Shown: in pieces, positions 2,699 through 61,706 of the stretch
Layout of the letters: each line of letters begins with the position of its first letter
Numbering within the stretch: position 1 is the first letter of the stretch
NCBI GenBank assembly: GCA_023134705.1
Contig: JAGLUN010000051.1
Coordinates: forward strand, 3,362 to 67,361
Origin: Candidatus Omnitrophota bacterium
GTDB taxonomy: Bacteria; Omnitrophota; Gorgyraeia; Duberdicusellales; 4484-171
DNA length: 64,000 nucleotides
Direction: 5' to 3'
Notes under the pieces: generated by a model
Told to the model about the DNA's origin: nothing
The model's input: the letters and a program-made list of their open reading frames with translations, nothing else
The model's database searches: none
Position numbers and translations under genes: made by a program

Positions 2699-3057
2699 CA
2701 CAGAAAAAAAGACACAGATAAACGCGGATTTTTTTAATTATGATTTAAAAGCGATATTTTCATATCAATCTTGTGAGAATCTCGTGAAAATTTTGTGGTT
2801 AAAAAATAATCCGCGTTAATCAGCTTAATACATTCCAATATGTGTTCTATCAATACTTTAACGTCTTTTTTCATAAAATAATCTCTTCTTCTTCTAATAT
2901 CTTTTCCTTAAGGAGAGAGTGAAGAGAAATATAGGTAACGATATTTTTACCTCCGGACAAAAATATAAGGTTGACATTTATAAAAATATAGTTGATAATT
3001 TAAAGCGAGAGATTTTGAATTTAAAAAAAGAAAGTGTGGTAGAAAATAAAAATTAAA

Positions 3058-3488
3058 TTGGGATTAATAAAAATTAAACACCTCGATTCAAGAGATAAAA
3101 GGAAGACCGAACGCCTTATGCTGGAGGGAAATCTTTGGGATAGGCTTGGTTTTTCTCAGAAATGGACCGGCCCTTTGCCTATAGAAAATATCAGCGGCGG
3201 CGGAATTAACTTCAGATATAAAAAAAGCTTTAAGAGAAATTCCGTGATAAATCCTATGATAGGTTTTCTTGGTGAAGGCGAACCTATAATCGTAAAAGGT
3301 AAAGTGACCTGGCCTAAGGCAATGCCTCCAGGCAAAACTTTAAACAATGAATTTTTACCGGGGGCTGCAAAACAGGCGTTAAGTTCTTCAAGATGGATTA
3401 TAATGACCGCCGCGAATTCATAGATTACTTTAGCGAAAAGGTCATTATTAAATACCTGGATGCCGAAGGCAAAATGGAATCAGAAAAA
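3058..3488 (+). pseudogene. PilZ paralog disrupted by a frameshift (G6 to G5 homopolymer) inside the duplicate copy
   Basis: It is identical in frame to the PilZ at 1131..1571 up to codon 101. From there the reading frame shifts, and the original C-terminus continues in another frame up to 3488. This could be a real pseudogene or a homopolymer sequencing error. Confidence 0.5.
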
Positions 3489-4300
3489 TGAGTTTAGTGA
3501 AAACTACTGCGGCAATATCCCGCGAGACGGATTTACGGACTTTTCTTGGACCTGTCGAGTATAGAGTTGTACGGAATAAAGAAGAGCTAAAGAAATCCTG
3601 CGCTCTCGTGTATAAAGAATACATAAAAAGAGGTTATATGGAAAAGAATTTTTCCGGGTTAAGGATTTCGATCTATAACGCTTTTCCTCAAACAACTACT
3701 TTCATTGCCATTGTCGAACAGGAAGTCATAGCCACAGCTACTATAATACCTGATCTTCCTTTTGGGCTGCCGATGGAGAAGACATACCATGAAGAACTTG
3801 AGAGATTCCGGAAGGACAACAAAAAGATTTGTCAGATATCTATGTTGGCCAGTGACAGCGAGCTTTTTAGCAGCGGAGCTTCAATGATGCTTCAGTCTAA
3901 AAAAATGTTTTTTGTTTTCTTTTTATTCAAACTTATGTTCGATTACGCTAAGAATATCCTTAACCTGGATAATGTATGTATTACAATAAATCCCAAACAC
4001 AATCCCACTTATGATTCTTTATTATTTAAAAATATGGGCGGATTAAAAACATATTCCGATGCCAATGGGGCACCCGCGATAGCAAAATTCCTGGATTTAA
4101 ATTCTGTCGAAACAGCCAGGATGTTTTTCTGGAGAAAAGCCGATCCTGAGAAATTTTCCGGCAAATTTATATTCAGCCATCAGGATTTAAAATACTTTTT
4201 CACCGAGAAAACAGATATCTTTAAAAACGCCACCCCTTTTCAACTAGATTGCCTTAAACGCTGCTATCCCGCTTACGACTTCTCAACGATTATTCCTTAA
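3488..4300 (+). CDS. Divergent paralog (270 aa, intact) of the GNAT-like N-acyl amino acid synthase-like protein
   Basis: It aligns over its full length to 1568..2410 with scattered substitutions and one 10-aa deletion. The frame is intact. Confidence 0.4.
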   Translation: MSLVKTTAAISRETDLRTFLGPVEYRVVRNKEELKKSCALVYKEYIKRGYMEKNFSGLRISIYNAFPQTTTFIAIVEQEVIATATIIPDLPFGLPMEKTYHEELERFRKDNKKICQISMLASDSELFSSGASMMLQSKKMFFVFFLFKLMFDYAKNILNLDNVCITINPKHNPTYDSLLFKNMGGLKTYSDANGAPAIAKFLDLNSVETARMFFWRKADPEKFSGKFIFSHQDLKYFFTEKTDIFKNATPFQLDCLKRCYPAYDFSTIIP

Positions 4301-4380
4301 GGATTTCACTTTGGATTATAATTTAAACTTTTATTTTCGGTTTTCTATTTTATGGTGTCTTGAATCTGGTATCTATTCAG

Positions 4381-4640
4381 AATTGATATTACGAGTATCT
4401 AGCATCCAGTATCGAGCTTCGCGTATCGCGTATCGAGCATCGCGTATTGCGTATCGAGTATCTAGCATCGAGGATCCAGGATCCAGGATCGAGGATCTAA
4501 AAGATTGTTCCTCATCTTTCGTCCCTCGTCCAAGTGAACGAAGTGAACGGTCGTCTCTCGTTCCTCGTTTTTCCTGTCCCCTCTCTTCTGTTCTCTAATT
4601 TTTATCTTCTAACGAGCATCTAGGATCAAGGATCTAAAAG
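4381..4640. repeat. Family-A composite intergenic repeat: CGCGTATCG-type octamer array, GATCCAGG/GATCGAGG units, then a CGTCCCTCGTC tract
   Basis: Tandem 8-9 bp units are read directly. The same composite recurs at 5521, 7834, 24496, 51271 and 57420. Confidence 0.8.
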
Positions 4641-4776
4641 GTTACATAAAGTTACTTAAAGTTACATAAGGTTACTTAAAGTTGCTTTAACGTGAAGCAA
4701 CCTTCCCTAACCTTAAGTAACGTTCTCAAAGTAACCTTCTTTAAGTAACCTTATTAGCCATCGACCATTGACTTCC
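4641..4776. repeat. Family-B element: imperfect palindrome built from GTTAC units phased every 10-11 bp, ending in GCCATCGACCATTGACTTCC
   Basis: The left arm is GTTACATAAAGTTACTTAAAGTTACATAAGGTTACTTAAAGTTGC. The centre is TTTAACGTGAAGCAACC. The right arm is the reverse-complement GTAACC units. Confidence 0.8.
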
Positions 4777-4801
4777 TTTGGGGTGTAGGGATAGAAGGGG
4801 C

Positions 4802-5143
4802 TTATTTCAAATATTCTTTTATTTTCAGCATTTTATTTTTTATATCCGGGATGTCCCGTAGTACAACTTCTAAAGTTAATTTCAAATCTATGCCGAAATA
4901 TTCATGTATAAGGATATCCCTCATACCGGCAATCTTTTTCCATGGAATCTCCGGATATTTTTCTTTTATGTCATCGGAAATATTCTTAACTGCTTCCCCG
5001 ATAATTTCGATACGGCGAATAACGGAATCCTGAAGCTGGACAGAGCCAAAAAAGTCATTGTCTGTTTTATCCCGCATATACTTTTCAACCAGCTCAATAG
5101 ATTCCAATATATGTTCTATCAATACTTTAACGTCTTTTTTCAT
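4802..5143 (-). CDS. hepT: HepT-like HEPN toxin (DUF86) of a HepT/MntA toxin-antitoxin pair
   Basis: It carries the Rx4HxY motif (RDILIHEY) and is 113 aa. It overlaps the upstream partner by 4 bp. Confidence 0.75.
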
Positions 5144-5427
5144 AAAATAATTTCTTGTTCTTCTAATATCTTTTCTTTAAGGAGGGGGTGAAGAGAAGCG
5201 TAGGTGACGATATCTACTTTTCTCCCCAGTAACTCCTGAAGTTCCAATTTTAAACCTACCAGATCTAATAAACTTTTTTTTTCTCCAAACTCAATAAGCA
5301 AATCAATATCACTTTCCTTTGTGATTTCGTTTCTTACAACCGAACCAAAAAGGGCGGCTTTTTTTACATTATGCTTTTTCAGTATTTTGTGAAAAACCTT
5401 TTTTATTTCATCAATCTGGATATCCAT
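5140..5427 (-). CDS. mntA: MntA-like minimal nucleotidyltransferase antitoxin
   Basis: It carries [17 protein letters not shown] (the GS...DxD nucleotidyltransferase motif). It is 95 aa and translationally coupled to hepT. Confidence 0.75.
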
Positions 5428-5636
5428 AAGTAGATTTGCTAAGGCACCCGTGAATAATAATGAAACAACTTAGTCCGATTATATAATAGCTTTATGTGCT
5501 TGTCAATAAAACCAGCGTTTTCTATTCGCGTATCGCATATCGAGGATCTAACAGATTATTCCTCCTCTCTCGTCCTTCATCTCTATATTCTTTACGAGTA
5601 TCGAGCATCGAGGATCTAGCATCAAGGATCTAAAAG

Positions 5637-5672
5637 GTTACATAAAGTTGCATAAAGTTACATAAGGTTGCG
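5637..5672. repeat. Family-B forward arm (GGTTACATAAAGTTGCATAAAGTTACATAAGGTTGCG) on the left of the four-helix-bundle gene
   Basis: It has the same phased GTTAC units as 4641..4690. The matching reverse arm lies at 6108..6225, on the other side of the gene. Confidence 0.7.
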
Positions 5673-6128
5673 TTTTTTTCGCAGCTTTGCGCCGGGGACT
5701 TTCCATGTTCCTTCCCGCTCCATCTTATACAAAGATTTAAGATATTGTCCAGTCATATAAGTCGCGCTTTGAAATAATTTCGAAAATGCGTCGAATTCTT
5801 TTTTGCTAATCAATCCGTCATCTTTGCAATCTTCAACATCGCCGCTTAATTCTTCTAAAGAACCCAGACTAATTCTAATGCTATGGATATATTCACCTAG
5901 AGTTCCTTTTCTATATCCCTCCCGTATATTTTGTTTTGCGCTTCTTGCGGCATCTCTCATTTGCGAAATCAGTCTTAGATGTATTGTTGAAAATCTTTTC
6001 GTTATTTTATGAATGAACTTACGTATTTGATAAATATCCTGATAAAATTTTAGCTTTTCATAGGCCAGAGTTTCCCGTCTTTCGTGTATTCTTTCGTCCA
6101 TTTCCTCTCTAACCTTCCCTAACCTCAA
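5658..6128 (-). CDS. Four-helix-bundle protein of the 23S rRNA intervening-sequence-associated family
   Basis: It carries ARSAKQNIREGYRKGT and SIRISLGSLEEL, the family core motifs (compare SxxNIAEG ... SxxExxxxL). It is 156 aa. Confidence 0.65.
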   Translation of the reverse strand: MRLGKVREEMDERIHERRETLAYEKLKFYQDIYQIRKFIHKITKRFSTIHLRLISQMRDAARSAKQNIREGYRKGTLGEYIHSIRISLGSLEELSGDVEDCKDDGLISKKEFDAFSKLFQSATYMTGQYLKSLYKMEREGTWKVPGAKLRKKRNLM

Positions 6129-6225
6129 GTAACTTTCTTAACGTAACCCTCTCAACGTAACCTTCTCTAACTTTAAGTAACTTTCTCAATGTACCCTTCC
6201 CCATGTAACCTTATGTACCCTTCCC
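6108..6225. repeat. Family-B reverse arm (GTAACC/TAACC units) on the right of the four-helix-bundle gene
   Basis: The sequence AACCTTCCCTAACCTCAAGTAACTTTCTTAACGTAACCCTCTCAACGTAACCTTCTCTAAC is nearly identical to 7783..7830 and 53880..53960. Confidence 0.75.
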
Positions 6226-6860
6226 TATCTAATGCGATAGCCCTCTACTATCTTCTCGAATTTTTTTTGAACACAAGAACGAATTCTTAAATTGGTTATT
6301 TTCCTTATCCATCCTTTCGCGTTCTTTAAATGAAATTGCTCTGAAAAATGCAGCTCAGGAAAATATCCAAACTGTTTTTTTTTACGGCAAGACAAATACA
6401 GGCTGTCAATTAAGGCCTTTTCAGGCTCAGCGATTAAGAATTCACCTTTTCCTTTAGACCAACAGAACCCGTCAAAGAATGAGGGGGCAATACGATGAAA
6501 AGAAAACACGCCTATTTTTGTTGATATAACTTTTGTATGAACCAGGGATGCGAGAGTAATTACTTGAGGTATTTGTTCAACTATTCCATAAAGATGTAGA
6601 GCACTCACAAAAGAAACATATGCCCTATGCCGGGGAAGTAGAAAAGGGATAATATTATAAGGGCTTACATATTTATCCCCCTTCTCATACCACAGGCCCC
6701 TATAAACTTTTACAAGAACACTCTCTTTTTCCAAATTATTCAAGGCCTGCGTTACAACAGACAAAGATTTACCGGAAAGGGCAGCGATTTCACGCGTCGT
6801 AAAAACTTTTCGGCCTAACTGCTTAATAAACTTTAAAACGGAACTTCTACGTTTTTCCAT
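6225..6860 (-). CDS. abiEi: AbiEi-like antitoxin/transcriptional regulator (N-terminal wHTH)
   Basis: It sits immediately downstream of an AbiEii-type nucleotidyltransferase and overlaps it. It has an N-terminal wHTH-like segment and is 211 aa. Confidence 0.5.
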   Translation of the reverse strand: MEKRRSSVLKFIKQLGRKVFTTREIAALSGKSLSVVTQALNNLEKESVLVKVYRGLWYEKGDKYVSPYNIIPFLLPRHRAYVSFVSALHLYGIVEQIPQVITLASLVHTKVISTKIGVFSFHRIAPSFFDGFCWSKGKGEFLIAEPEKALIDSLYLSCRKKKQFGYFPELHFSEQFHLKNAKGWIRKITNLRIRSCVQKKFEKIVEGYRIR

Positions 6861-7623
6861 TTATCAACTCATCTATAAAATTACACACCTTCAGTTTAAT
6901 CCCATCCCATACAGAACGCGTATCATACACATTCTGATCTTCGACAGAGAGATAAGAAACCACACTATCACGAAACTGTTCAAAACTGATTTCAAGTACA
7001 TTCTGATACGCCTTTTTTAAAATATTCTTTTCAATAAGTAATGCCCGGCTCTTGTCATATTGTGAACTCAAAAGATGAAGGTCAAAAACATCTCTTGCTT
7101 GAAGAAAAGCCCTTGTAACTAATGCTTTTATCTTTTGGCTCACCATAGAATCCGCGTCATAGTGAGGAACTAAAATCGGCGGCAGCTTATAGGCCCGCAA
7201 TACAGTATCCATAACTTCTTCTACCCGTACGCCTTCTTTAAAACCTCTCCTTGAAAATTCAATTTTAATAAATAAATCCTCTCCGCTTGCGGTTATCAAA
7301 TGGACTTTAAATGGCTGGGTAGTTTGTGTTTGCTTTGCTTTTTTTATATCCGGAGGAATTATCTTTTCAATACCAAAAGGTCTAAGTGTGTCCTGAAATG
7401 ATTGGGAATTAAGGACATTCATTACCATTTCAATAAGAGTATCAACGGCTACCCTTTCTACATCCAAATCTATATCTTCTGAGTAACGAATACTGTGAAA
7501 GAAAAAGCGCAAATTTACTCCACCCTTTAAAACATAGGTATCGGGTTTGAGCTTTCTCCCAAGCCATCGTAAGAATTCTAAATGAAATACCTCTCTTACT
7601 TGTAACGGGCTGTTTATTAGCAT
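6847..7623 (-). CDS. abiEii: AbiEii/AbiGii-family nucleotidyltransferase toxin (DUF1814)
   Basis: It carries LKGGVNLRFFFHSIRYSEDIDLDVE, matching the family signature LKGGTxL...R.SEDIDL. It is 258 aa. Confidence 0.7.
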   Translation of the reverse strand: MLINSPLQVREVFHLEFLRWLGRKLKPDTYVLKGGVNLRFFFHSIRYSEDIDLDVERVAVDTLIEMVMNVLNSQSFQDTLRPFGIEKIIPPDIKKAKQTQTTQPFKVHLITASGEDLFIKIEFSRRGFKEGVRVEEVMDTVLRAYKLPPILVPHYDADSMVSQKIKALVTRAFLQARDVFDLHLLSSQYDKSRALLIEKNILKKAYQNVLEISFEQFRDSVVSYLSVEDQNVYDTRSVWDGIKLKVCNFIDELINGKT

Positions 7624-7690
7624 TATAATTATGTATTATAGTTTAGTTATAACTAAATTTCAATACATTACTAAAAAGGTTAGATAAACG

Positions 7691-7833
7691 ATTACATAAA
7701 GTTATTTAAAGTTGCATTAACGTTACGTAACCTTCTTAACGCAACCTTCCCTAACCTTAAGTAACCTTCTCTAAGTAGCCTTCTCTACGTAACCTTCCCT
7801 AACCTCAAGTAACTTTCTTAACGTAACCTTCTC
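7691..7833. repeat. Family-B palindromic element with a short forward arm and a long reverse arm
   Basis: The sequence runs ATTACATAAAGTTATTTAAAGTTGCATTAACGTTACGTAACC, followed by phased GTAACC units. Confidence 0.8.
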
Positions 7834-7925
7834 ATCTCACTTGTATCTCTATATTCTTTGCGAGTATCTAGCATCGAGCATCCAGCATCTAAAGTGTTAT
7901 CCCTCATCTTTCGTCCCTCGTCTCT
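7834..7925. repeat. Family-A repeat segment (GCATCGAGCATCCAGCATC units, then CGTCCCTCGTC)
   Basis: It has the same units as 4396..4560. Confidence 0.7.
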
Positions 7926-8106
7926 TGAATTCCGGTGACTCAATGCTTAATTATTAACCACAAGATTGTAGAATCTGCAACAAACTTTTTAAAATCCTTT
8001 TCAAAATTCTCTTTTAGTGCTATTCTATAATTGTTTTACAAAGAAACGTAATAGTTTAATTATTCATTTTATGGGAGAGTAAACATTTAGGAGAAATTAG
8101 TTTTAT

Positions 8107-19795: not shown

Positions 19796-19856
19796 CTATT
19801 CTTCACGCATTAAGCGATGACCGAAGGGAATCCTGAGTATCCCCGACGGATACGCG

Positions 19857-20567
19857 TTACGAGGTATGTTTTTTTTGCCTGAATCCCGCGCCAATCAATC
19901 CCAAAAGCCCGGATCCAAGAAGAAGAATGGTTGCGGGTTCGGGGATGGGCGGAGTGCCTCTATATTCCAATCGAAAGGGAGTGTCTATATCAGCATGCCA
20001 GTTCCAACGATTATTACGTTCGTCTAGGTGATAGAATCCATCTCCGGTAGCAACCTTTGGTAAACGAAAGTCCGTATCGTCTGTTGTTGTGGCGGCATTT
20101 GAACCATTTAATCCGTAAAAACTAAGCCAATACTCACCGGAAGGAAGACCTAATGGAGTTGGGAGTGTGAATTCAATATCGTAAATTTTGTCAATAGTGG
20201 AAAAAGGGGCTATAGAACTTTGTAAAGCAGTGTAGTCACCAGGTATGAGTATTTGTTCATAAAAAGGAGAGGAAGTATCTGGCTTTCCAGAGCTAGAGTC
20301 GTTGTTAAAAATTGAAAATGTAAATTTTTCGAGTGAATAGTTTATAGTTATGCCTTCTTGAAACCAAACGGTATCTATTGTTGAATCCTGAGGAAGTGTG
20401 AAATCGTCGTAAATGCGCCACTTAGAAGGTGTAAAAGCTTCAGATGAGCGAAGACCTCCAGCAGATGTTCCGATGCCATTATCATAAATAATAATTGCGT
20501 CAGCCGTGCATGTGGAAATTATAATTACAAACATAGTTATAAAGAATATTAATATTCTTTTTCCCAT
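19857..20567 (-). CDS. Secreted PEP-CTERM-anchored protein
   Basis: It has a signal peptide. Its C-terminus is PIPEPATILLLGSGLLGLIGAGFRQKKHTS. Confidence 0.8.
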   Translation of the reverse strand: MGKRILIFFITMFVIIISTCTADAIIIYDNGIGTSAGGLRSSEAFTPSKWRIYDDFTLPQDSTIDTVWFQEGITINYSLEKFTFSIFNNDSSSGKPDTSSPFYEQILIPGDYTALQSSIAPFSTIDKIYDIEFTLPTPLGLPSGEYWLSFYGLNGSNAATTTDDTDFRLPKVATGDGFYHLDERNNRWNWHADIDTPFRLEYRGTPPIPEPATILLLGSGLLGLIGAGFRQKKHTS

Positions 20568-20642: not shown

Positions 20643-20741
20643 ATGAGGATGGATAGACGCAAATTATGAGATACGGTGAGATTGATAGCAATAATATAGT
20701 GGAAATATATAGAAATAGGTTGAAATATAGTTGAAATACAA

Positions 20742-20868
20742 GGTTACTTAAGGTTAGGGAAGGTTACGTAGGAAAGTTACATTGAGAAGGTTGCTTAAAG
20801 AAGGTTACTTCACGTCAACGTAACCTTAAGTAACTTTAAGTAACTTTATGTAACCTTATTTTAATTAA
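20742..20868. repeat. Family-B palindromic element in the opposite orientation
   Basis: It reads AAGGTTACTTAAGGTTAGGGAAGGTTACGTAGG...CACGTCAACGTAACCTTAAGTAACTTTAAGTAACTTTATGTAACC. Confidence 0.75.
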
Positions 20869-48452: not shown

Positions 48453-48500
48453 TATTTGATTACACAGATTATTGCTAGATTACACAGATTTCTGTTCGAT
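48453..48500. repeat. Array of GATTACACAGAT-type units (left flank of the GxxExxY gene)
   Basis: It reads GATTACACAGATTATTGCTAGATTACACAGATTTCTGTTCGATTGCTCAGATT. Confidence 0.7.
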
Positions 48501-48508
48501 TGCTCAGA

Positions 48509-48889
48509 TTAAAGAACAAACCTTTTAACTCCACAACTTTTATTGCCGAAATTAACTAATAATCCGACTTTCAAATTAGATGCTCTTAAATAAGAAAGTA
48601 TCTGGTATTTAAAAACATCGGGAATATTGCCTGTTAAGGCTTTAACTTCAACTATAACTTTATCTTCTATGATTAAGTCTAATCTAAGTCTGCCAACATT
48701 CTCTCCTTGATACGAAATCGTAAAACTTTTCTCAGTCTGATACCTTAAGCCTTCCTGTTTTAAAGCTATCTCTAAGGCATTATGGTATATACGCTCATTA
48801 AATCCCGGCCCTAATTCAGAATGAACCCTATAACAACAACCTATTATTTTTTCTGTAAGTGAATCATTATCTTTCATCTGTGTAATCAT
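48509..48889 (-). CDS. GxxExxY-family protein (PD-(D/E)xK-like small selfish/insert gene)
   Basis: It carries LGPGFNERIYHNAL (G..E..Y) and the family end ...GVKRFVL. It is 126 aa. Confidence 0.65.
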   Translation of the reverse strand: MITQMKDNDSLTEKIIGCCYRVHSELGPGFNERIYHNALEIALKQEGLRYQTEKSFTISYQGENVGRLRLDLIIEDKVIVEVKALTGNIPDVFKYQILSYLRASNLKVGLLVNFGNKSCGVKRFVL

Positions 48890-48965
48890 TTTTCATAATC
48901 TGCGTAATCATTTATTATAATCTGTGCCATCATTTTTTATTATCTGTGTAATCTTCCTTTTAATC
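48890..48965. repeat. Array of ATCTGTGTAATC-type units (right flank, inverted relative to the left flank)
   Basis: It reads ATAATCTGCGTAATCATTTATTATAATCTGTGCCATCATTTTTTATTATCTGTGTAATCTTCCTTTTAATCTGTGTAATCA. Confidence 0.7.
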
Positions 48966-49850
48966 TGTGTAATCATTTATTCTAATAAATTTATCGGTAG
49001 ATTCCTCCCATTTTGGGATAGCGATATCTAATGTTTTTTTGATTTTTAAATTCGACATAGCGGAAAACATCGGCCTCTTTGCTTTTGTTTTAAAAGTATC
49101 TATTGAAACGGGAACAATTATATTTTCAGTACCCATTCTATTAATAAAATATCTGGCTAATTCATGTCTTGAAGCATAGCCGGTATTAGTTAGATGGAAT
49201 AAGCCCGTTATGCCTTTTTCTAAACTTAATAATGTAACATTTACAATATTTTCTGTATATGTAGGAACTGAGACTTCATCAGATGTTATTTTAAGCACTT
49301 TAGATTTTTCAGCCCACTGTCTTAACTTGTATAAAAAGTTTTGTTTCCCCTTTCCGATAACCCAACTTAATCTGAATATCAAAAAATCAGATAAACACTC
49401 TTTGATTGCCTGTTCTCCCTCTAATTTGCTTTTACCATATACATTAAGAGGATTTGTCATGTCTTCTTCTACATATAAATCCTGTTTTTGTCCATCAAAC
49501 ACATAGTCTGAACTATAGTGGACTAAAAATATTTTATTTTCTTTACAGATTCTTGCTAAATTCTCGACAGCCTGACTATTTACTAAATGTGCTAATTTTG
49601 AATTTTCTTCGGCTTCATCAACTAGATTATATGCGGCGCAATTAATAATGACATTGGGTTTAGCTTCATTTATTATTGTTCTTGTCTTTGTGAAATCAGT
49701 AATATCCCATTCTTCTTCCGATGGAGCAGCAAAATCAATTTTTCTTTCATGGAAAATTTTCTGAAATTCTTTACTTAATTGCCCTGAAGCGCCTGAAATT
49801 AAAAATTTATTATTCTTCATCGTAAATAAAGCTTTTTTTAATGTTATCAA
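48960..49850 (-). CDS. rfbD: dTDP-4-dehydrorhamnose reductase
   Basis: It has a Rossmann N-terminus (LISGASGQL), is 296 aa and lies in the rfb gene order. Confidence 0.8.
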   Translation of the reverse strand: MITLKKALFTMKNNKFLISGASGQLSKEFQKIFHERKIDFAAPSEEEWDITDFTKTRTIINEAKPNVIINCAAYNLVDEAEENSKLAHLVNSQAVENLARICKENKIFLVHYSSDYVFDGQKQDLYVEEDMTNPLNVYGKSKLEGEQAIKECLSDFLIFRLSWVIGKGKQNFLYKLRQWAEKSKVLKITSDEVSVPTYTENIVNVTLLSLEKGITGLFHLTNTGYASRHELARYFINRMGTENIIVPVSIDTFKTKAKRPMFSAMSNLKIKKTLDIAIPKWEESTDKFIRINDYTD

Positions 49851-53740: not shown

Positions 53741-53990
53741 TTGCGTATCGTGTGAAGAAAGGTTACATAAAGTTACTTAAAGTTAAGGTTACTTAAAGTT
53801 ACATAAGGTTACTTAAAGTTGCTTAAGGTTGCGTTAACGTGAAGTAACCTTCTCAAAGCAACCTTCTCTAACCTTCCCTAACCTCAGGTAACTTTCCCAA
53901 AGTAACCTTCTCTGCGTAACCTTCTTAATGTAACCTTCTTAATGTAACCTTCTCTAAGTACCTTATCAGCTATCGACCATCGACTTCCTT
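53741..53990. repeat. Family-B element (the largest copy) with the terminus CAGCTATCGACCATCGACTTCC
   Basis: It reads AAGGTTACATAAAGTTACTTAAAGTTAAGGTTACTTAAAGTTACATAAGGTTACTTAAAGTTGCTTAAGGTTGCGTTAACGTGAAGTAACC, followed by nine reverse GTAACC/TAACC units. Confidence 0.85.
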
Positions 53991-55342: not shown

Positions 55343-55510
55343 CTCTCACCTTTTTTTATTTAACCACATTTTTTTTGACAGGATTAACTGGATTAACAAG
55401 ATAAAATTTCATATTTAACCACAAGATTACACTAGATCTTGATACTTTAAAATCTTCTTAACAATTTAATCGCGGATTATTTTTTTACCACGAAGTTCAC
55501 GAAGGTTTTA

Positions 55511-55957
55511 TCATAGAACAAATCTTTTTATTCCTAATTTTAATTTTTCAACGTTAAAATTAAGCAATAACCCAACTTTAATTTTTGCCAATTTCATATA
55601 AGTTAGTATTTGAGCTTCGTGTATGCCTAAAATTTTATCAACGCTTTTTAATTCTATAATAAGCTTATTTGCTATAAGAATATCGATACGATATCCACAA
55701 TCTAATTTAATCCCGTTATATTCTATCGGTAAAGAACATTGTAGAGTAAACGGTATATCTGATAGTTTTAATTCATGAGCTAAACATTGTTCATAAGCCG
55801 ATTCAAGTAAGCCTGGTCCAAGAGCCCGGTGTACTTTTATGGCACAACCTATAACTTTATTTGATAATTCATCAAATTTTACTTCGTGTCCTTCGTGTTT
55901 AAAATATTTATTTACCGGCACTTCTTCCATACTCATCTTCCAGCCTCTGGATATCAT
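55511..55957 (-). CDS. GxxExxY-family protein (second copy)
   Basis: It carries LGPGLLESAYEQCL and the end GIKRFVL. The start is probably internal (M8 or M10), so the overlap with manC may be shorter. Confidence 0.6.
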   Translation of the reverse strand: MISRGWKMSMEEVPVNKYFKHEGHEVKFDELSNKVIGCAIKVHRALGPGLLESAYEQCLAHELKLSDIPFTLQCSLPIEYNGIKLDCGYRIDILIANKLIIELKSVDKILGIHEAQILTYMKLAKIKVGLLLNFNVEKLKLGIKRFVL

Positions 55958-57368: not shown

Positions 57369-57620
57369 ATATCGTCAATGGTTAATAGTCGATAGTCAAT
57401 GGTCGATAGTCTATGGGGAGAAAGTAACGCGTATTGCGTATCCTTCGGGGATACTCAGGATTCTCTCCTTCGACTGTGCTCAGGACAAGTTTCGGTCATC
57501 GCATATCGAGCATTCAGCATCCAAACTTTCTGACTTCTGTCCTCTGACTTCTGAAGCCTGTCTCCTCCCACTTCTCTATCGAGCATCTAAACTTTCTATT
57601 TACTGCCTTCTTCCCTCTGA
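57361..57620. repeat. Family-A composite repeat with GTCGATAGTCAATGG units
   Basis: It has TCGTCAATGGTTAATAGTCGATAGTCAATGGTCGATAGTCTATGG, then CGTATTGCGTATCC and GAGCATTCAGCATCC/GAGCATCTAAAC units. Confidence 0.75.
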
Positions 57621-57999: not shown

Positions 58000-58039
58000 T
58001 ATGGATCACCTCCTTTTGAATAGTCTATGGTCGATATTC

Positions 58040-58140
58040 ATTGAAATATGCTTCGCGAAATATACTTCGTGAAATATACTTCATGAAATATATAGATATA
58101 GATAGAAATAAATGGAAATATGTTGAAATAAATAGTCCGC
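58040..58140 (-). promoter_or_regulatory. GAAATAT direct-repeat block (14-bp period) upstream of the small PEP-CTERM gene, homologous to the blocks at 18036 and 19413
   Basis: It reads CGCGAAATATACTTCGTGAAATATACTTCATGAAATATATAG...GGAAATATGTTGAAATAAATAGTCCGCCATTGGCGG. Confidence 0.45.
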
Positions 58141-58179
58141 CATTGGCGGAAAATATAATTGGAATACATCTTTATTGCT

Positions 58180-58578
58180 TTAATCTTCATTTTTGGCCTT
58201 AGTTTTTGATTTGTATGTTGAACTTATAAAGTTATTTAATTTGATTGATAATTTCTTGCTCAATTTTTCCATTTTGTTAAAAATATCTTTATCGATAATC
58301 TTTCGTTCATGGAGTAAAGATAACCAATGTTCACACGATTCACTTAAAGACGCACGGCTGGTATAATAGAACTTAATCCTATCTAAGAAGTGATATCTTT
58401 TATACCCTTCAGCAATGTTTGCCCCTACAGAATCGATAGATTCAATAAATTGATCTCCCATAATCTTCTTTTCATGCCAATTCAATGCGCTATAGATTTC
58501 CCATGCAATTCCTGATAATTCTCTGGATATCCTGTAAACCTCTAAATCCTTCAGTTCTATATATTTCTTTATATCCAT
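58180..58578 (-). CDS. Four-helix-bundle protein (23S IVS-associated family), second copy
   Basis: It carries SVGANIAEGYKRYH and YYTSRASLSESCEHW. It is 132 aa. Confidence 0.65.
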   Translation of the reverse strand: MDIKKYIELKDLEVYRISRELSGIAWEIYSALNWHEKKIMGDQFIESIDSVGANIAEGYKRYHFLDRIKFYYTSRASLSESCEHWLSLLHERKIIDKDIFNKMEKLSKKLSIKLNNFISSTYKSKTKAKNED

Positions 58579-58603
58579 TCTATATCTATATATTGATATA
58601 TCT

Positions 58604-59581
58604 CTACCCTTTCACCAGTTGGCTTTTAAAATATTCGACTGTTCTCCTAAGGCCTTGTTCAAAATCAACTATGGGTTTGAAGCCAAGCATTGACTTGATT
58701 TTAGAAACATCGGCTAAGGTTTTGAATACGTCTCCTTTGCGTACAGGTAAAAATTCCGGTTGGATATTTTTGCCGATGATTTTATTGAGTGAGTCAACTA
58801 TGCTTAATACAGTGTTGTCTTTTCCGTTGGCAACGTTAAGAATCGTATTGCGTATCGCGTATTGCGTATCGCGTAAAGGGACGGTGGCGGCAAGGATGTT
58901 GGCTTCAACTACGTTATCAATATAAGTAAAATCACGGGATTGTTTGCCATTACCAAAAATCGGCGGTTGTTCATTATTAAGAATGCAATGGATAAATTTA
59001 GGGATAACTACAGCGTATTCGTCGTCTAATGCCTGCCTTGGGCCGAACACGTTAAAGTAACGCAGGCTTACTGTTTCCAGGCCGAAGTTCTCGCTGAAAA
59101 TCCGGCAGTAATATTCACCGGCTAATTTAGTCAAAGCGTAAGGAGAAATAAGTAACGGATAGGCGGTTTCCTTCTCAGGGAATTTGTCGGTATCTCCATA
59201 AACAGAACTTGATGACGCAAAGACCAAACGTTTCGTCCCGCACTCTCCACCGGCTTTAAGCATATTTAAAGTGCCATTAATATTTACCTCGTTATATTCA
59301 TAAGGGTTATTCATTGATTTAGGTACACTGCGTAAGGCGGCCTGGTGGAATATAATTTCGATACCTTTACAGGCTCTTAGACAAGTATCATAGTCACAGA
59401 TATCGCCTCTGATTAGTCGATAGTCGATGGCCGATTGTCCATAGCTGGATACAAAAGAGAGGTTCTCTTCTTTTCCGGAAGAGAAGTTATCAAGTACAAC
59501 CACGTCATTTCCTTCCTTCAGTAATCGTTCAACAATATGTGAACCGATAAATCCTGCTCCGCCGGTTACCAATGCTTTCAT
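58604..59581 (-). CDS. NAD-dependent UDP-sugar 4-epimerase (GalE/WbpP-like extended SDR)
   Basis: It carries ALVTGGAGFIGSH and YALTKLAGE and is 325 aa. The codons 58849..58880 are a family-A repeat unit (see findings). Confidence 0.75.
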   Translation of the reverse strand: MKALVTGGAGFIGSHIVERLLKEGNDVVVLDNFSSGKEENLSFVSSYGQSAIDYRLIRGDICDYDTCLRACKGIEIIFHQAALRSVPKSMNNPYEYNEVNINGTLNMLKAGGECGTKRLVFASSSSVYGDTDKFPEKETAYPLLISPYALTKLAGEYYCRIFSENFGLETVSLRYFNVFGPRQALDDEYAVVIPKFIHCILNNEQPPIFGNGKQSRDFTYIDNVVEANILAATVPLRDTQYAIRNTILNVANGKDNTVLSIVDSLNKIIGKNIQPEFLPVRKGDVFKTLADVSKIKSMLGFKPIVDFEQGLRRTVEYFKSQLVKG

Positions 59582-60567: not shown

Positions 60568-60590
60568 AAGTTTCGTATCCTCCGGGAATA

Positions 60591-60800
60591 CTCAGGATTC
60601 CCTTCGGTCATTTCGTATTGCGTATCGCGTATCGCGTATTGCGTTATAAATTCCTTTTACTAACTTTATACCTTTTTTCCAAACTCTTAAATCTCTAAAA
60701 TATTTTATTTTGTCTTCCATTTTGTCATATTTGTGTTTTGTACGCGATACGCGATACTCGTTACGCGATACGCTATTATTGCTTTCATAAATTTCGTATT
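60591..60800. repeat. Family-A arrays in inverted orientation bracketing a 5' fragment (about 60650..60740) of a four-helix-bundle gene
   Basis: 60611..60645 reads CGTATTGCGTATCGCGTATCGCGTATTGCG. 60745..60790 reads GTACGCGATACGCGATACTCGTTACGCGATACG. 60650..60740 is about 90 percent identical to 61092..61180. Confidence 0.75.
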
Positions 60801-60803
60801 GCG

Positions 60804-61163
60804 TTATAATTTTTTTGCTAAATTAGTAATCATTCTACAAATATGGTCGATTATTTCTGTTAATTCGTTTTCTTTGTCTTCTTTTATGTAAGACAATTCT
60901 TTTGTAATTATCACCTGGGTTTCTAATTCCGCGCAGGAACCTAAAGATATATTGAGAAATTGTTTGTATTCTTTGTTATGTTTTCGTCTAAAACCCTCTG
61001 CTATGTTAGAAGGGATAGAAATGGCACATCTTCTCATTTGAGAAGAAAGTCCATATTGTTCTTCTTTAGGGAAACTTTTCGTTGTTTTATAAATTTCTTT
61101 TACTAGCTCTATACCTTTTTTCCAAACTCTTAAATCTCTAAAACGTCTTATTTTGTCTTCCAT
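60804..61163 (-). CDS. Four-helix-bundle protein (23S IVS-associated family), third copy
   Basis: It carries RRCAISIPSNIAEGFRRKH and NISLGSCAELETQ. It is 119 aa. Confidence 0.7.
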   Translation of the reverse strand: MEDKIRRFRDLRVWKKGIELVKEIYKTTKSFPKEEQYGLSSQMRRCAISIPSNIAEGFRRKHNKEYKQFLNISLGSCAELETQVIITKELSYIKEDKENELTEIIDHICRMITNLAKKL

Positions 61164-61214
61164 ATTGTCATATTTGTTTGTACGCGATACGCAATACGCG
61201 TTACGCGATACGAA

Positions 61215-61706
61215 TCACGCGATACGCGTTACAATATTTTTAAAGAATATAATTGCTCCCACAATTACCGCGTTTATTGAGGCTAAGAGGACCCCGGCAG
61301 CGGCAATGTCTTTAACCAGTTTAACCGAAGGATGATATTTCTTGCCGTTTAAAAAGTCTAAGCTTAACTCTAAAGCCGTGTTAATAATTTCACAAGCAAT
61401 AACAAAGATCATGGCTAAAAACAAAATTGCCATTTCTAAATAAGAAACCTTAATCAAAAGACTTAAGACAATGACCGATAATCCCGTAATAATATGTATA
61501 CGGATGTTCCTTTGGCTTTTTAAAGCGAATTTAAGCCCTTCCCAGGCACAAACAAAGCTGCTCAATAAATTTCTTCGTTTATTAAAAATATTTAAGGGAT
61601 AATTGTTAACCTCTAATGAAGAAGCATTAGCGGTTAAGGGATTAGGTCCGGAATGATTATTTTTTACAACTTCATCCATCCCTTGACCAAGATTAATCTC
61701 CGGCAT
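61215..61706 (-). CDS. dgkA: Diacylglycerol/undecaprenol kinase (DgkA family)
   Basis: It carries EIINTALELSLDF and VKDIAAAGVLLASINAVIVG, and has three transmembrane helices. The start is assigned at the internal Met to avoid the upstream overlap. The ORF could extend to 61772. Confidence 0.55.
   Translation of the reverse strand: MPEINLGQGMDEVVKNNHSGPNPLTANASSLEVNNYPLNIFNKRRNLLSSFVCAWEGLKFALKSQRNIRIHIITGLSVIVLSLLIKVSYLEMAILFLAMIFVIACEIINTALELSLDFLNGKKYHPSVKLVKDIAAAGVLLASINAVIVGAIIFFKNIVTRIA

Follow-up and report, generated by a model that had tools for sequence, protein, structure and literature searches.

Introduction

Intervening sequences (IVSs) of 23S rRNA, described in Leptospira, Coxiella, Brucella and Xanthomonas (PMC4990558), are closed by complementary termini, which pair into a long stem, and may carry an open reading frame (ORF) of the PF05635 family. 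The S23p ORF of Coxiella is bordered by a 28-bp inverted-repeat stem that is cut by RNase III, and S23p from Xanthomonas is a homopentamer as cited in the same paper (PMC4990558). In diversity-generating retroelements (DGRs), the DNA near the gene for the Avd protein encodes an RNA stem-loop with flipped-out bases, to which Avd, a pentameric barrel, binds; Avd-binding stem-loops have been predicted in 207 of 278 DGRs (bioRxiv 10.1101/2023.10.23.563531). Here, we describe tandem-unit hairpins, termed family B, in 64,000 nucleotides of Candidatus Omnitrophota DNA (contig JAGLUN010000051.1; hereafter the window), a chromosomal exopolysaccharide (EPS)/PEP-CTERM locus with a GC content of ~36%. Family B very probably represents the arms of a cassette that carries a four-helix-bundle gene, plus gene-less derivatives of that cassette, and its best reading is that of an element resembling the rRNA IVSs but residing outside rRNA, together with these derivatives.

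As in the rRNA IVSs, gene-bearing (~430-750 nt) and gene-less (~100-150 nt) forms exist, the occurrence among relatives is sporadic and the element would be transcribed within a host transcript. The long enclosing stem is evident from folds, from an alignment of the arms in 65 loci and from covariation, and it surrounds a PF05635 ORF. Unlike the IVSs, family B is located between the protein-coding genes of operons, its gene-less copies are dispersed and its arms are modular, being built of ~five 10-nt units with an AGGTTAC core, with each protein subfamily having its own unit. No insertion into helix 9, 25 or 45 of 23S rRNA was found. Rfam gave nothing on the elements, whether in a search of the window at gathering thresholds, in an E-value search of 4300-8100 or in 38 related loci (18 with gene-less elements and 20 cassette loci), and it reported no rRNA in the window or in these loci; an approximate query for a conserved rRNA motif, run with up to three mismatches, likewise gave no match in the 987 kb examined. 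Excision by RNase III is known for the rRNA elements and, by analogy, may apply to family B as well. In a literature search, no paper was found that connects tandem-unit hairpins with four-helix-bundle or GxxExxY genes, which is no proof that none exists, and the hairpin cassette is apparently undescribed so far.

Organization of the window copies

The two-unit motif GTTRCNTAANGTTRC occurs 23 times in the window with at most one mismatch (0.24 matches expected), a count reached by none of 100 shuffles. Every match falls within the intervals in which a first-pass annotation, made by reading the DNA without database searches, had reported long imperfect palindromes of GTTAC units, confirming these repeats as real and non-random. 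The six copies proposed there reduce to five loci, one supposedly split copy (5634-6225) being a single element with a gene in its loop. The hairpin arms are arrays of ~10-nt units, typically five, with the core AGGTTAC in the 5′ arm and GTAACCT in the 3′ arm; since GTAACC and GGTTAC are reverse complements, the pattern (GGTTAC..)n-loop-(GTAACC..)n is read from either strand. Analysis with Tandem Repeats Finder located 10-nt tandem units of the type GTTAC(A/T)TAAA at 4641-4683, 5637-5669, 20820-20858 (opposite strand) and 53762-53830, and mixed 10- and 14-nt units of the type GTAACCTTCTCxAx in the second arm of the window copies.

Copy 2 is the complete form, in which a gene stands in place of the hairpin loop. 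This gene (5658-6101, minus strand, ATG at 6101) encodes a four-helix-bundle protein of 147 residues that has an identical NCBI entry, 'four helix bundle protein [Candidatus Omnitrophica bacterium]', and that matches PF05635 (E=2.4e-17; 63.5 bits, cut-off 33.8), TIGR02436 (E=8.6e-16; 58.1 bits, cut-off 24) and PDB entry 2GSC (E=5.5e-5). These matches place the product in the 23S rRNA intervening-sequence protein family (S23p/IVP/Avd-like); the loop of the complete form is a gene for 130-150 residues representing a distinct subfamily of the PF05635/TIGR02436 family. A profile built from six four-helix-bundle proteins matches 2GSC (E=1.4e-20) and 2RLD (E=4e-5), PDB entries with five chains each. 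No match of the copy-2 protein to the DGR Avd model NF033474 was obtained (the paralogue encoded at 60804-61163 reaches a score of 33.6, the cut-off being 80), and none of the three four-helix-bundle proteins of the window matched the PADLOC defence-system library.

In the sense of the enclosed gene, the 5′ arm of copy 2 (6104-6225, minus strand) comprises ~nine AGGTTAC-type units at 10- and 14-nt spacing and terminates in the ribosome-binding site GAGAGGAAATG of the gene. The 3′ arm (5634-5672, minus strand) contains four GTAAC/GCAAC units, and the stop codon TAA of the gene falls within a GTAAC unit, so that the ORF is abutted by one arm at its ribosome-binding site and runs into the other at its end. 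In the minimum-free-energy fold of the whole cassette RNA, the 5′ arm pairs with 5634-5672. Comparison with copy 5 indicates that the gene substitutes for ~30 nt around the loop.

Copies 1, 3, 4 and 5 are gene-less derivatives. Copy 1 (4638-4757), delimited from its sequence, tandem repeats, motif matches and fold, is a hairpin located 3′ of the HepT gene. Its left arm (4638-4685) has five units at 10-nt spacing (GTTAC at 4641, 4651, 4661 and 4671 and GTTGC at 4681), followed by the loop TTTAACGTGAA (4686-4696) and a right arm (4697-4757) of GCAAC, CTAAC and three GTAAC units spaced at 10, 10, 14 and 14 nt. Copy 4 (20740-20860), the orientation of which is opposite to that of the other copies, has a sigma-54 response-regulator gene and a PEP-CTERM gene as neighbours. 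Copy 5 (53759-53968) is an expanded hairpin with ~7-8 left and ~10 right units around the loop GTTAACGTGAA and occupies the entire spacer between two co-directional sugar-nucleotide genes. These three copies form long hairpins on both strands with z-scores of -4.6 to -6.2 (copy 1, -38.2 and -47.5 kcal/mol, z-scores -6.0 and -5.5; copy 4, -40.9 and -33.8 kcal/mol; copy 5, -59.5 and -79.7 kcal/mol, z-scores -4.7 and -6.2). Copy 3 (7680-7834) is degenerate, with an eroded left arm and a right arm expanded as a 48-nt block × 2.3, and folds weakly (z-scores -1.4 and -3.1).

The shared core between the arms, as described in the first-pass annotation, was recovered as TTAACGTGAAG in copies 1, 4 (inverted) and 5, but is only partial in the degenerate copy 3. 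The common loop TTAACGTGAAG and the flanking modules suggest that, in this Candidatus Omnitrophota lineage, the window copies lacking the gene were multiplied in their gene-less form. A conserved terminus, by contrast, could not be upheld: ATCGACCATYGACTTCC occurs only at 4760 and 53972, in two of the five copies, and is a heptamer array in its own right, belonging to a different repeat family. Its first occurrence, GCCATCGACCATTGACTTCC at 4758-4776 (GGTCGAT/GGTCAAT on the other strand), lies outside the hairpin, and a second copy of the module, CAGCTATCGACCATCGACTTCC, occupies 53969-53990. The same heptamers recur at 57384-57416 and 59414-59442 and flank a different IVP gene in L162, a syntenic EPS locus from another Omnitrophota genome. 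Nor are the copies characteristic of operon ends, as had been supposed: two lie between co-directional genes and a third within a co-directional string, while the remaining two have convergent and divergent neighbours, respectively.

Occurrence in other genomes

GGTTAC arms also enclose four-helix-bundle genes in L033 (68% GC, with 55-nt near-perfect inverted arms) and in L063, from a metagenome-assembled genome (MAG) of Planctomycetia. The copy-2, L033 and L063 proteins share 51-57% mutual identity; compared with five other four-helix-bundle proteins from the window and L162, each of which has different flanking units, their identity is only 20-34%. Starting from the protein, a search of metagenomes gave 80 loci of the subfamily (GC 31-67%), 56 of which were non-redundant and had enough flanking sequence. 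At least three GTTNC upstream and at least three GNAAC downstream of the gene were present in 46 of these 56 loci and the reverse arrangement in none, while only 7 of 79 distant control windows contained at least three of either pentamer. Most of the exceptions swap the unit on both arms (GGTTAAC/GTTAACC, GGTTGGC/GCCAACC or GGTTATC/GATAAC). The modal chain length is five units per side, with a step of 10 nt in 83% and 9 nt in 11% of cases, and the stop codon of the cassette gene usually lies within the first or second GTAAC unit. The subfamily comprises at least 700 clusters, the named ones belonging to Omnitrophota, Planctomycetota, candidate division WOR-1 and Candidatus Edwardsbacteria. Neighbouring genes lie on the cassette strand in 50/55 cases on the left and 51/56 on the right (~91%), a co-orientation which implies that the cassettes, placed between operon genes in the orientation of these genes, would be co-transcribed with them.

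Scanning one genome per species for three consecutive units identified 79 loci, many of them in Omnitrophota and Planctomycetia MAGs and at least 12 from a single MAG of 65-69% GC. The canonical form in these loci has five pentamers spaced by 10 nt on either side of a 3-28-nt loop, GTTNC before the loop and GNAAC after it, and is often bordered by GGAGGTTAC...GTAACCTCC. Gene-less hairpins with five units on either side (5+5) are present in both Omnitrophota and Planctomycetia; one gene-less copy is situated between rplL and rpoB (L022), another between rpsL and rpsG (L011) and a third upstream of an IHF/HU gene (L074), and others adjoin tmRNA (L044) and tRNA genes (L078). The rplL-rpoB spacer of E. 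coli carries an RNase III site. On one contig (L107), a gene-less 5+5 hairpin (158-272) and a gene-bearing larB-larC cassette (1440-1937) lie 1.2 kb apart.

Locations of this kind might reflect a host function like that of repetitive extragenic palindromes (REPs), the hairpin stabilizing upstream mRNA or terminating or insulating cistrons independently of the protein, with the gene merely lodged in it. The long stable hairpins, with z-scores down to -6, the intergenic sites that include highly expressed operons (rplL-rpoB and rpsL-rpsG) and tmRNA and tRNA neighbours, and the position of copy 1 behind HepT are in line with such a function. It is nevertheless improbable in view of the coupling between protein subfamily and unit type in at least 46 of 56 loci, other subfamilies having other units, and of the rarity of gene-less hairpins around subfamily genes: 198 kb of cassette flanks contained a single one, and neither L162 nor L163, a third Omnitrophota genome, had any; in most genomes, the cassette seems to be unaccompanied by a hairpin population. 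Promoter and terminator scans furthermore revealed no terminator-like T-run or consensus site inside any window copy, the strong promoters belonging to toxin-antitoxin pairs, and an intrinsic terminator (GC-rich stem plus T-run) was rejected for want of a terminator-like site in any copy. Since gene-less copies are so rare elsewhere, the set in the window looks like a lineage-specific expansion.

The intergenic regions of the window are rich in 7-, 10- and 14-nt arrays, unit numbers vary and arrays occur even in an ORF, as might be expected of neutral, microsatellite-like slippage products that have no function and are unrelated across genomes. We regard this as scarcely credible for family B, in which the same core, unit order and 5+5 design recur in different MAGs and phyla, the arms are conserved like the neighbouring genes at an orthologous site and there is a strict tie to one protein subfamily. 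In L020, L023 and L044, the arms at different loci and in different MAGs keep one order of non-identical units around unrelated loops, which argues for a defined dispersed sequence and not a simple microsatellite.

In the first-pass annotation, the elements were interpreted as intrinsically curved DNA with helix-phased A/T tracts, possibly serving nucleoid-protein binding or insulation. TAAA/TTAAA does recur every 10 bp on one arm, and 10 nt is the commonest period in the family; phasing therefore holds for this arm, but the other mixes 10- and 14-nt units and the element as a whole is unphased. Classical DNA bending needs phased A4-6 tracts. The A runs of the window copies are A3, and units such as GGTTACGTAAG or GGTTACGGGAG, found in GC-rich relatives, contain no A-tract. 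Unit periods of 9, 10, 11 and 14 nt across the family also speak against curvature as a conserved property, and a curvature model leaves the inverted arrangement, the arm covariation and the enclosed gene unexplained, making it highly improbable. The features conserved across the family are the AGGTTAC/GTAACCT core, the ~five units per arm and the complementarity between the arms.

Arm pairing and conservation

In the 20 exact 5+5 elements, 81.7% of the cells are paired compared with 77.5% after shuffling, and the covariation score is 0.191 compared with 0.123; neither value was reached in 500 shuffles, making the two-sided changes significant. Sliding the register of the arm-arm helix leaves only 29-43% paired. 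A blind 6-mer complementarity test, in which exact complements of the top 6-mer were found in only 6 of 63 loci, was too noisy; the commonest words were AGGTTA/TAACCT.

Absence from syntenic sites in relatives, which the first-pass annotation had regarded as an argument against a structural or regulatory role, is observed for part of the class. Cassettes are present in L162, whereas L163 has plain short spacers at the same sites, so cassettes have been gained or lost as units. At one larB-larC site, on the other hand, the cassette is kept across divergent organisms: in four divergent contigs, the arms are 68-84%, the gene 67-78% and the flanking genes 57-73% identical. With the arms as conserved as the flanking genes, these non-coding sequences are under constraint.

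In the transcript, the arms would pair into an imperfect duplex of ~45-50 bp with periodic mismatches that closes off the ORF, a pairing comparable to that of the terminal inverted repeats of the 23S rRNA IVSs. This duplex would be the working part of the element, as a site cut by RNase III and/or a site bound by the encoded, presumably pentameric protein. The IVS-like anatomy and the precedent of Avd lead us to favour such an RNA-level role, with the arm duplex possibly being processed and/or bound by the encoded protein. Taken by itself, an RNA-level mechanism of the arms has in our estimate a little less than an even chance; the classification and this mechanism taken together are considered rather probable. 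The correspondence of five units with five protomers is no more than suggestive.

Several observations weigh against this reading. At the variable base of the pentamer and at unit borders, about half of the cases show a mismatch, such that the duplex would have periodic defects. Transition mismatches in the arm alignment of 65 loci do speak for pairing in the RNA, being more often of the type that preserves G.U pairing in the sense RNA than of the antisense type (274 vs 173, p ~2e-6), but this excess may reflect a transcription-linked mutation bias and was counted over loci which are not independent. The GTT..C and G..AAC bases are far more conserved than pairing alone demands, which points to a sequence-specific reader, possibly acting on DNA, and the invariant core is compatible with a reader at that level. 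A copying mechanism rather than selection could also keep the arms complementary. The overall fold of the 611-nt copy-2 cassette is no better than that of shuffled sequences (z = -0.57), and copy 3 lies between divergent genes, upstream of the AbiE promoter (7663-7635). Finally, no fixed orientation of gene-less copies relative to neighbouring genes was found by spacer type or strand-specific folding energy, in a check for which the ORF heuristic was unreliable at GC-rich loci.

Alternatively, the arms could be double-stranded binding sites, similar to transposon ends or operators, for a sequence-specific protein (the four-helix-bundle protein or some recombinase), with the sites serving the movement or regulation of the cassette and its gene-less derivatives and the RNA hairpin being incidental. 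An AGGTTAC core that stays invariant from 31 to 68% GC and in several phyla, more so than pairing requires, would be explained in this way, as would the dominant 10-bp period, the presence or absence of cassettes of the class at syntenic sites (L162 vs L163) and the occurrence of gene-less copies in either orientation; gene-less window copies with a common loop and flanking modules, hence spread as units (family D11), would also fit. However, the ends of copies 1, 2, 4 and 5 show no target-site duplication, no transposase, integrase or reverse transcriptase was found among the 52 window ORFs scanned (of 81 listed ORFs of at least 90 residues), 9- and 14-nt periods occur and the larB-larC cassette is stably inherited. 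Operon co-orientation and the G.U asymmetry would likewise be unexpected for a purely DNA-level site. We therefore consider a DNA-level element unlikely and retain the RNA-level role of the arm duplex as the preferred reading.

A broader proposal, which is doubtful at present, is that each pentameric S23p/IVP subfamily is a sequence-specific nucleic-acid binder, with the array flanking its own gene as the cognate site and gene-less arrays as its regulon or as non-autonomous copies spread with its help. If so, the site of the present subfamily would be five AGGTTAC units per arm, one per protomer, and the gene-less arrays concerned would be those located between rplL and rpoB, between rpsL and rpsG, close to tmRNA and tRNA genes and within EPS operons. 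Such a partnership would be comparable to that between REP-associated tyrosine transposases (RAYTs) and their REPINs (REP doublets forming hairpins), built on a non-enzymatic RNA-binding barrel, and sister subfamilies would have their 'codes' in the heptamer arrays that occur here and in other genomes.

We know of no function of the PF05635/TIGR02436 family outside DGRs. This orphan family, which is very large and often multi-copy, would thus gain a specific and testable nucleic-acid partner. The findings suggest that rRNA IVSs may be one habitat of a broader class of operon-dwelling hairpin cassettes, which is also a possible source of some intergenic short tandem repeats in uncultured phyla. 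For annotation purposes, the arrays can be recognized as cassette arms instead of spurious ORFs.

Comparison with known repeat systems

REP/REPIN-RAYT systems share with family B the dispersed intergenic hairpins, a single small protein gene between inverted repeat copies, the coupling of protein subfamily and repeat, and a largely vertical inheritance with lineage-specific expansions. Unlike RAYT, an HUH Y1 transposase, the flanked gene product is a four-helix bundle without known catalytic activity, and unlike REPs, which are GC-rich palindromes of 20-40 nt with GTAG/CGTC heads, the arms are tandem-unit arrays of 45-50 nt. Membership in this class was rejected on the basis of the AT-rich 10-nt unit arrays of the window and the four-helix-bundle gene, the layout being analogous only.

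Similarity to the Correia/NEMIS, ERIC, RUP and BOX elements lies in the multi-copy intergenic palindromes of ~100-200 nt, which for family B would likewise be co-transcribed with their neighbours. Correia elements are processed by RNase III. Family B differs from these elements in its internal tandem units, in a loop that is variable or gene-bearing, and in the lack of a target-site duplication and of any partner insertion sequence or transposase among the sequences inspected. A miniature transposable element with inverted repeats (MITE) was similarly rejected: inverted arms are present, but inspection revealed no direct duplication flanking copies 1, 2, 4 and 5. No parent insertion sequence was detected in the scanned window ORFs, and the four-helix-bundle gene is the only gene found between such ends. 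The 'non-autonomous mobile element' of the first-pass annotation is close to the mark for the gene-less copies; its view that the repeats are neither a CRISPR array nor REP or bacterial interspersed mosaic elements nor a classical MITE is shared here.

The DGR system resembles family B in that Avd is a four-helix-bundle protein and that its RNA stem-loop is likewise encoded next to its own gene. No reverse transcriptase (in the scanned window ORFs) or template-repeat/variable-repeat pair was found, and the long multi-unit duplex is unlike the 9-bp stem-loop of Avd; DGR membership was rejected owing to the missing reverse transcriptase and the failure to match the Avd model NF033474. Cyanobacterial short tandemly repeated repetitive (STRR) sequences and the TAACTGA heptamers of Beggiatoaceae (PMC4679880) also fill intergenic spacers with short tandem units, form occasional arrays in ORFs and have one unit common to distant phyla. 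They differ from family B in being direct repeats only, usually just upstream of start codons, and no link to hairpins or four-helix-bundle genes was made for these heptamers (PMC4679880).

A CRISPR array was rejected because the units abut without spacers and are arranged in inverted halves. At 4800-7623, toxin-antitoxin pairs and small ORFs follow one another in a single orientation, which led us to consider integron attC sites. These contain R″/L″-L′/R′ boxes with a GTTRRRY core and are recognized by the integron integrase. The five-unit arms are unlike this two-box layout, and attC sites were set aside on architecture; no integrase is present among the scanned ORFs. Carriage by phages was set aside after a search of IMG/VR, which returned only 11 matches to the DNA motif and no protein of the subfamily.

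Related cassettes and genomic context

The window contains three genes of the PF05635/TIGR02436 family, the two besides copy 2 lying in related cassettes on the minus strand. One cassette (58037-58606) is built of a different unit. Inverted arrays of the GAAATA/TATATAGATA type, at 58037-58140 and 58579-58606, enclose its four-helix-bundle gene (58180-58578), the product of which shares 25% identity with the copy-2 protein. In the other (60736-61238), the four-helix-bundle gene (60804-61163; product 31% identical to the copy-2 protein) is situated between heptamer (TACGCGA/CGTATCG) arrays. L162 has three four-helix-bundle genes between inverted heptamer arrays, two of which are of the 5+5 design. 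Adjacent to the second related cassette, 60650-60722 duplicates the start of the intact gene 60804-61163 (compared with 61095-61175), forming a truncated 5′ four-helix-bundle fragment followed by heptamers, which suggests decay or recombination of cassettes.

The ORF of an NAD-dependent epimerase (58604-59581, minus strand) contains a heptamer array, CGTATTGCGTATCG x 2.3, in frame at 58840-58875, which encodes PLRDTQYAIRNT where the L162 orthologue has DNASGEV, and a further heptamer-like stretch is present in the same ORF at 59414-59442. A third repeated module, which includes a small hairpin of the type GGGAATCCTGAGTATCCCC, adjoins heptamer arrays in both orientations at 19805-19866, 57425-57466 and 60574-60623.

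Two small GxxExxY/PD-(D/E)XK ORFs (TIGR04256, PF13366; 48509-48889 and 55511-55957, minus strand) lie between inverted short-unit arrays within the rml/EPS operon (48458-48986 and 55478-55957), flanked by GATTACACAGATT.. and AATCTGTGTAATC.. in the first case and by CACGAAGTTCACGAAGG and CTTCGTGTCCTTCGTG in the second. Their position between inverted arrays makes them a second multi-copy small-protein family with the same hairpin-cassette layout. An Alistipes MAG (L065, 6520-7400) contains a longer four-helix-bundle-like gene (6649-7221) between direct copies of a GTTNCTTAAG 10-nt array module, an arrangement that is a Bacteroidota variant of the gene-array association.

The copy-2 cassette is strung in a single orientation with the HepT/MNT and AbiEii/AbiEi toxin-antitoxin pairs (4802-5427 and 6225-7623), which have near-consensus sigma-70 promoters at 5506-5478 (12/12 positions) and 7663-7635 (11/12), respectively. 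The repeat-rich spacer before copy 1 (4300-4640) contains heptamer arrays overlapped by a 95-residue ORF (4311-4598) that has no family match and is probably not a gene. A scaffold near-identical to the window is present in metagenome data. Further upstream, a block encoding PilZ and an FeeM-like N-acyl amino acid synthase is duplicated in tandem (1026-1731 vs 2947-3651, 93-94% identity), and between the duplicates lies a 127-nt copy of the HepT/MNT junction (2818-2944 vs 5087-5213, 90% identity).

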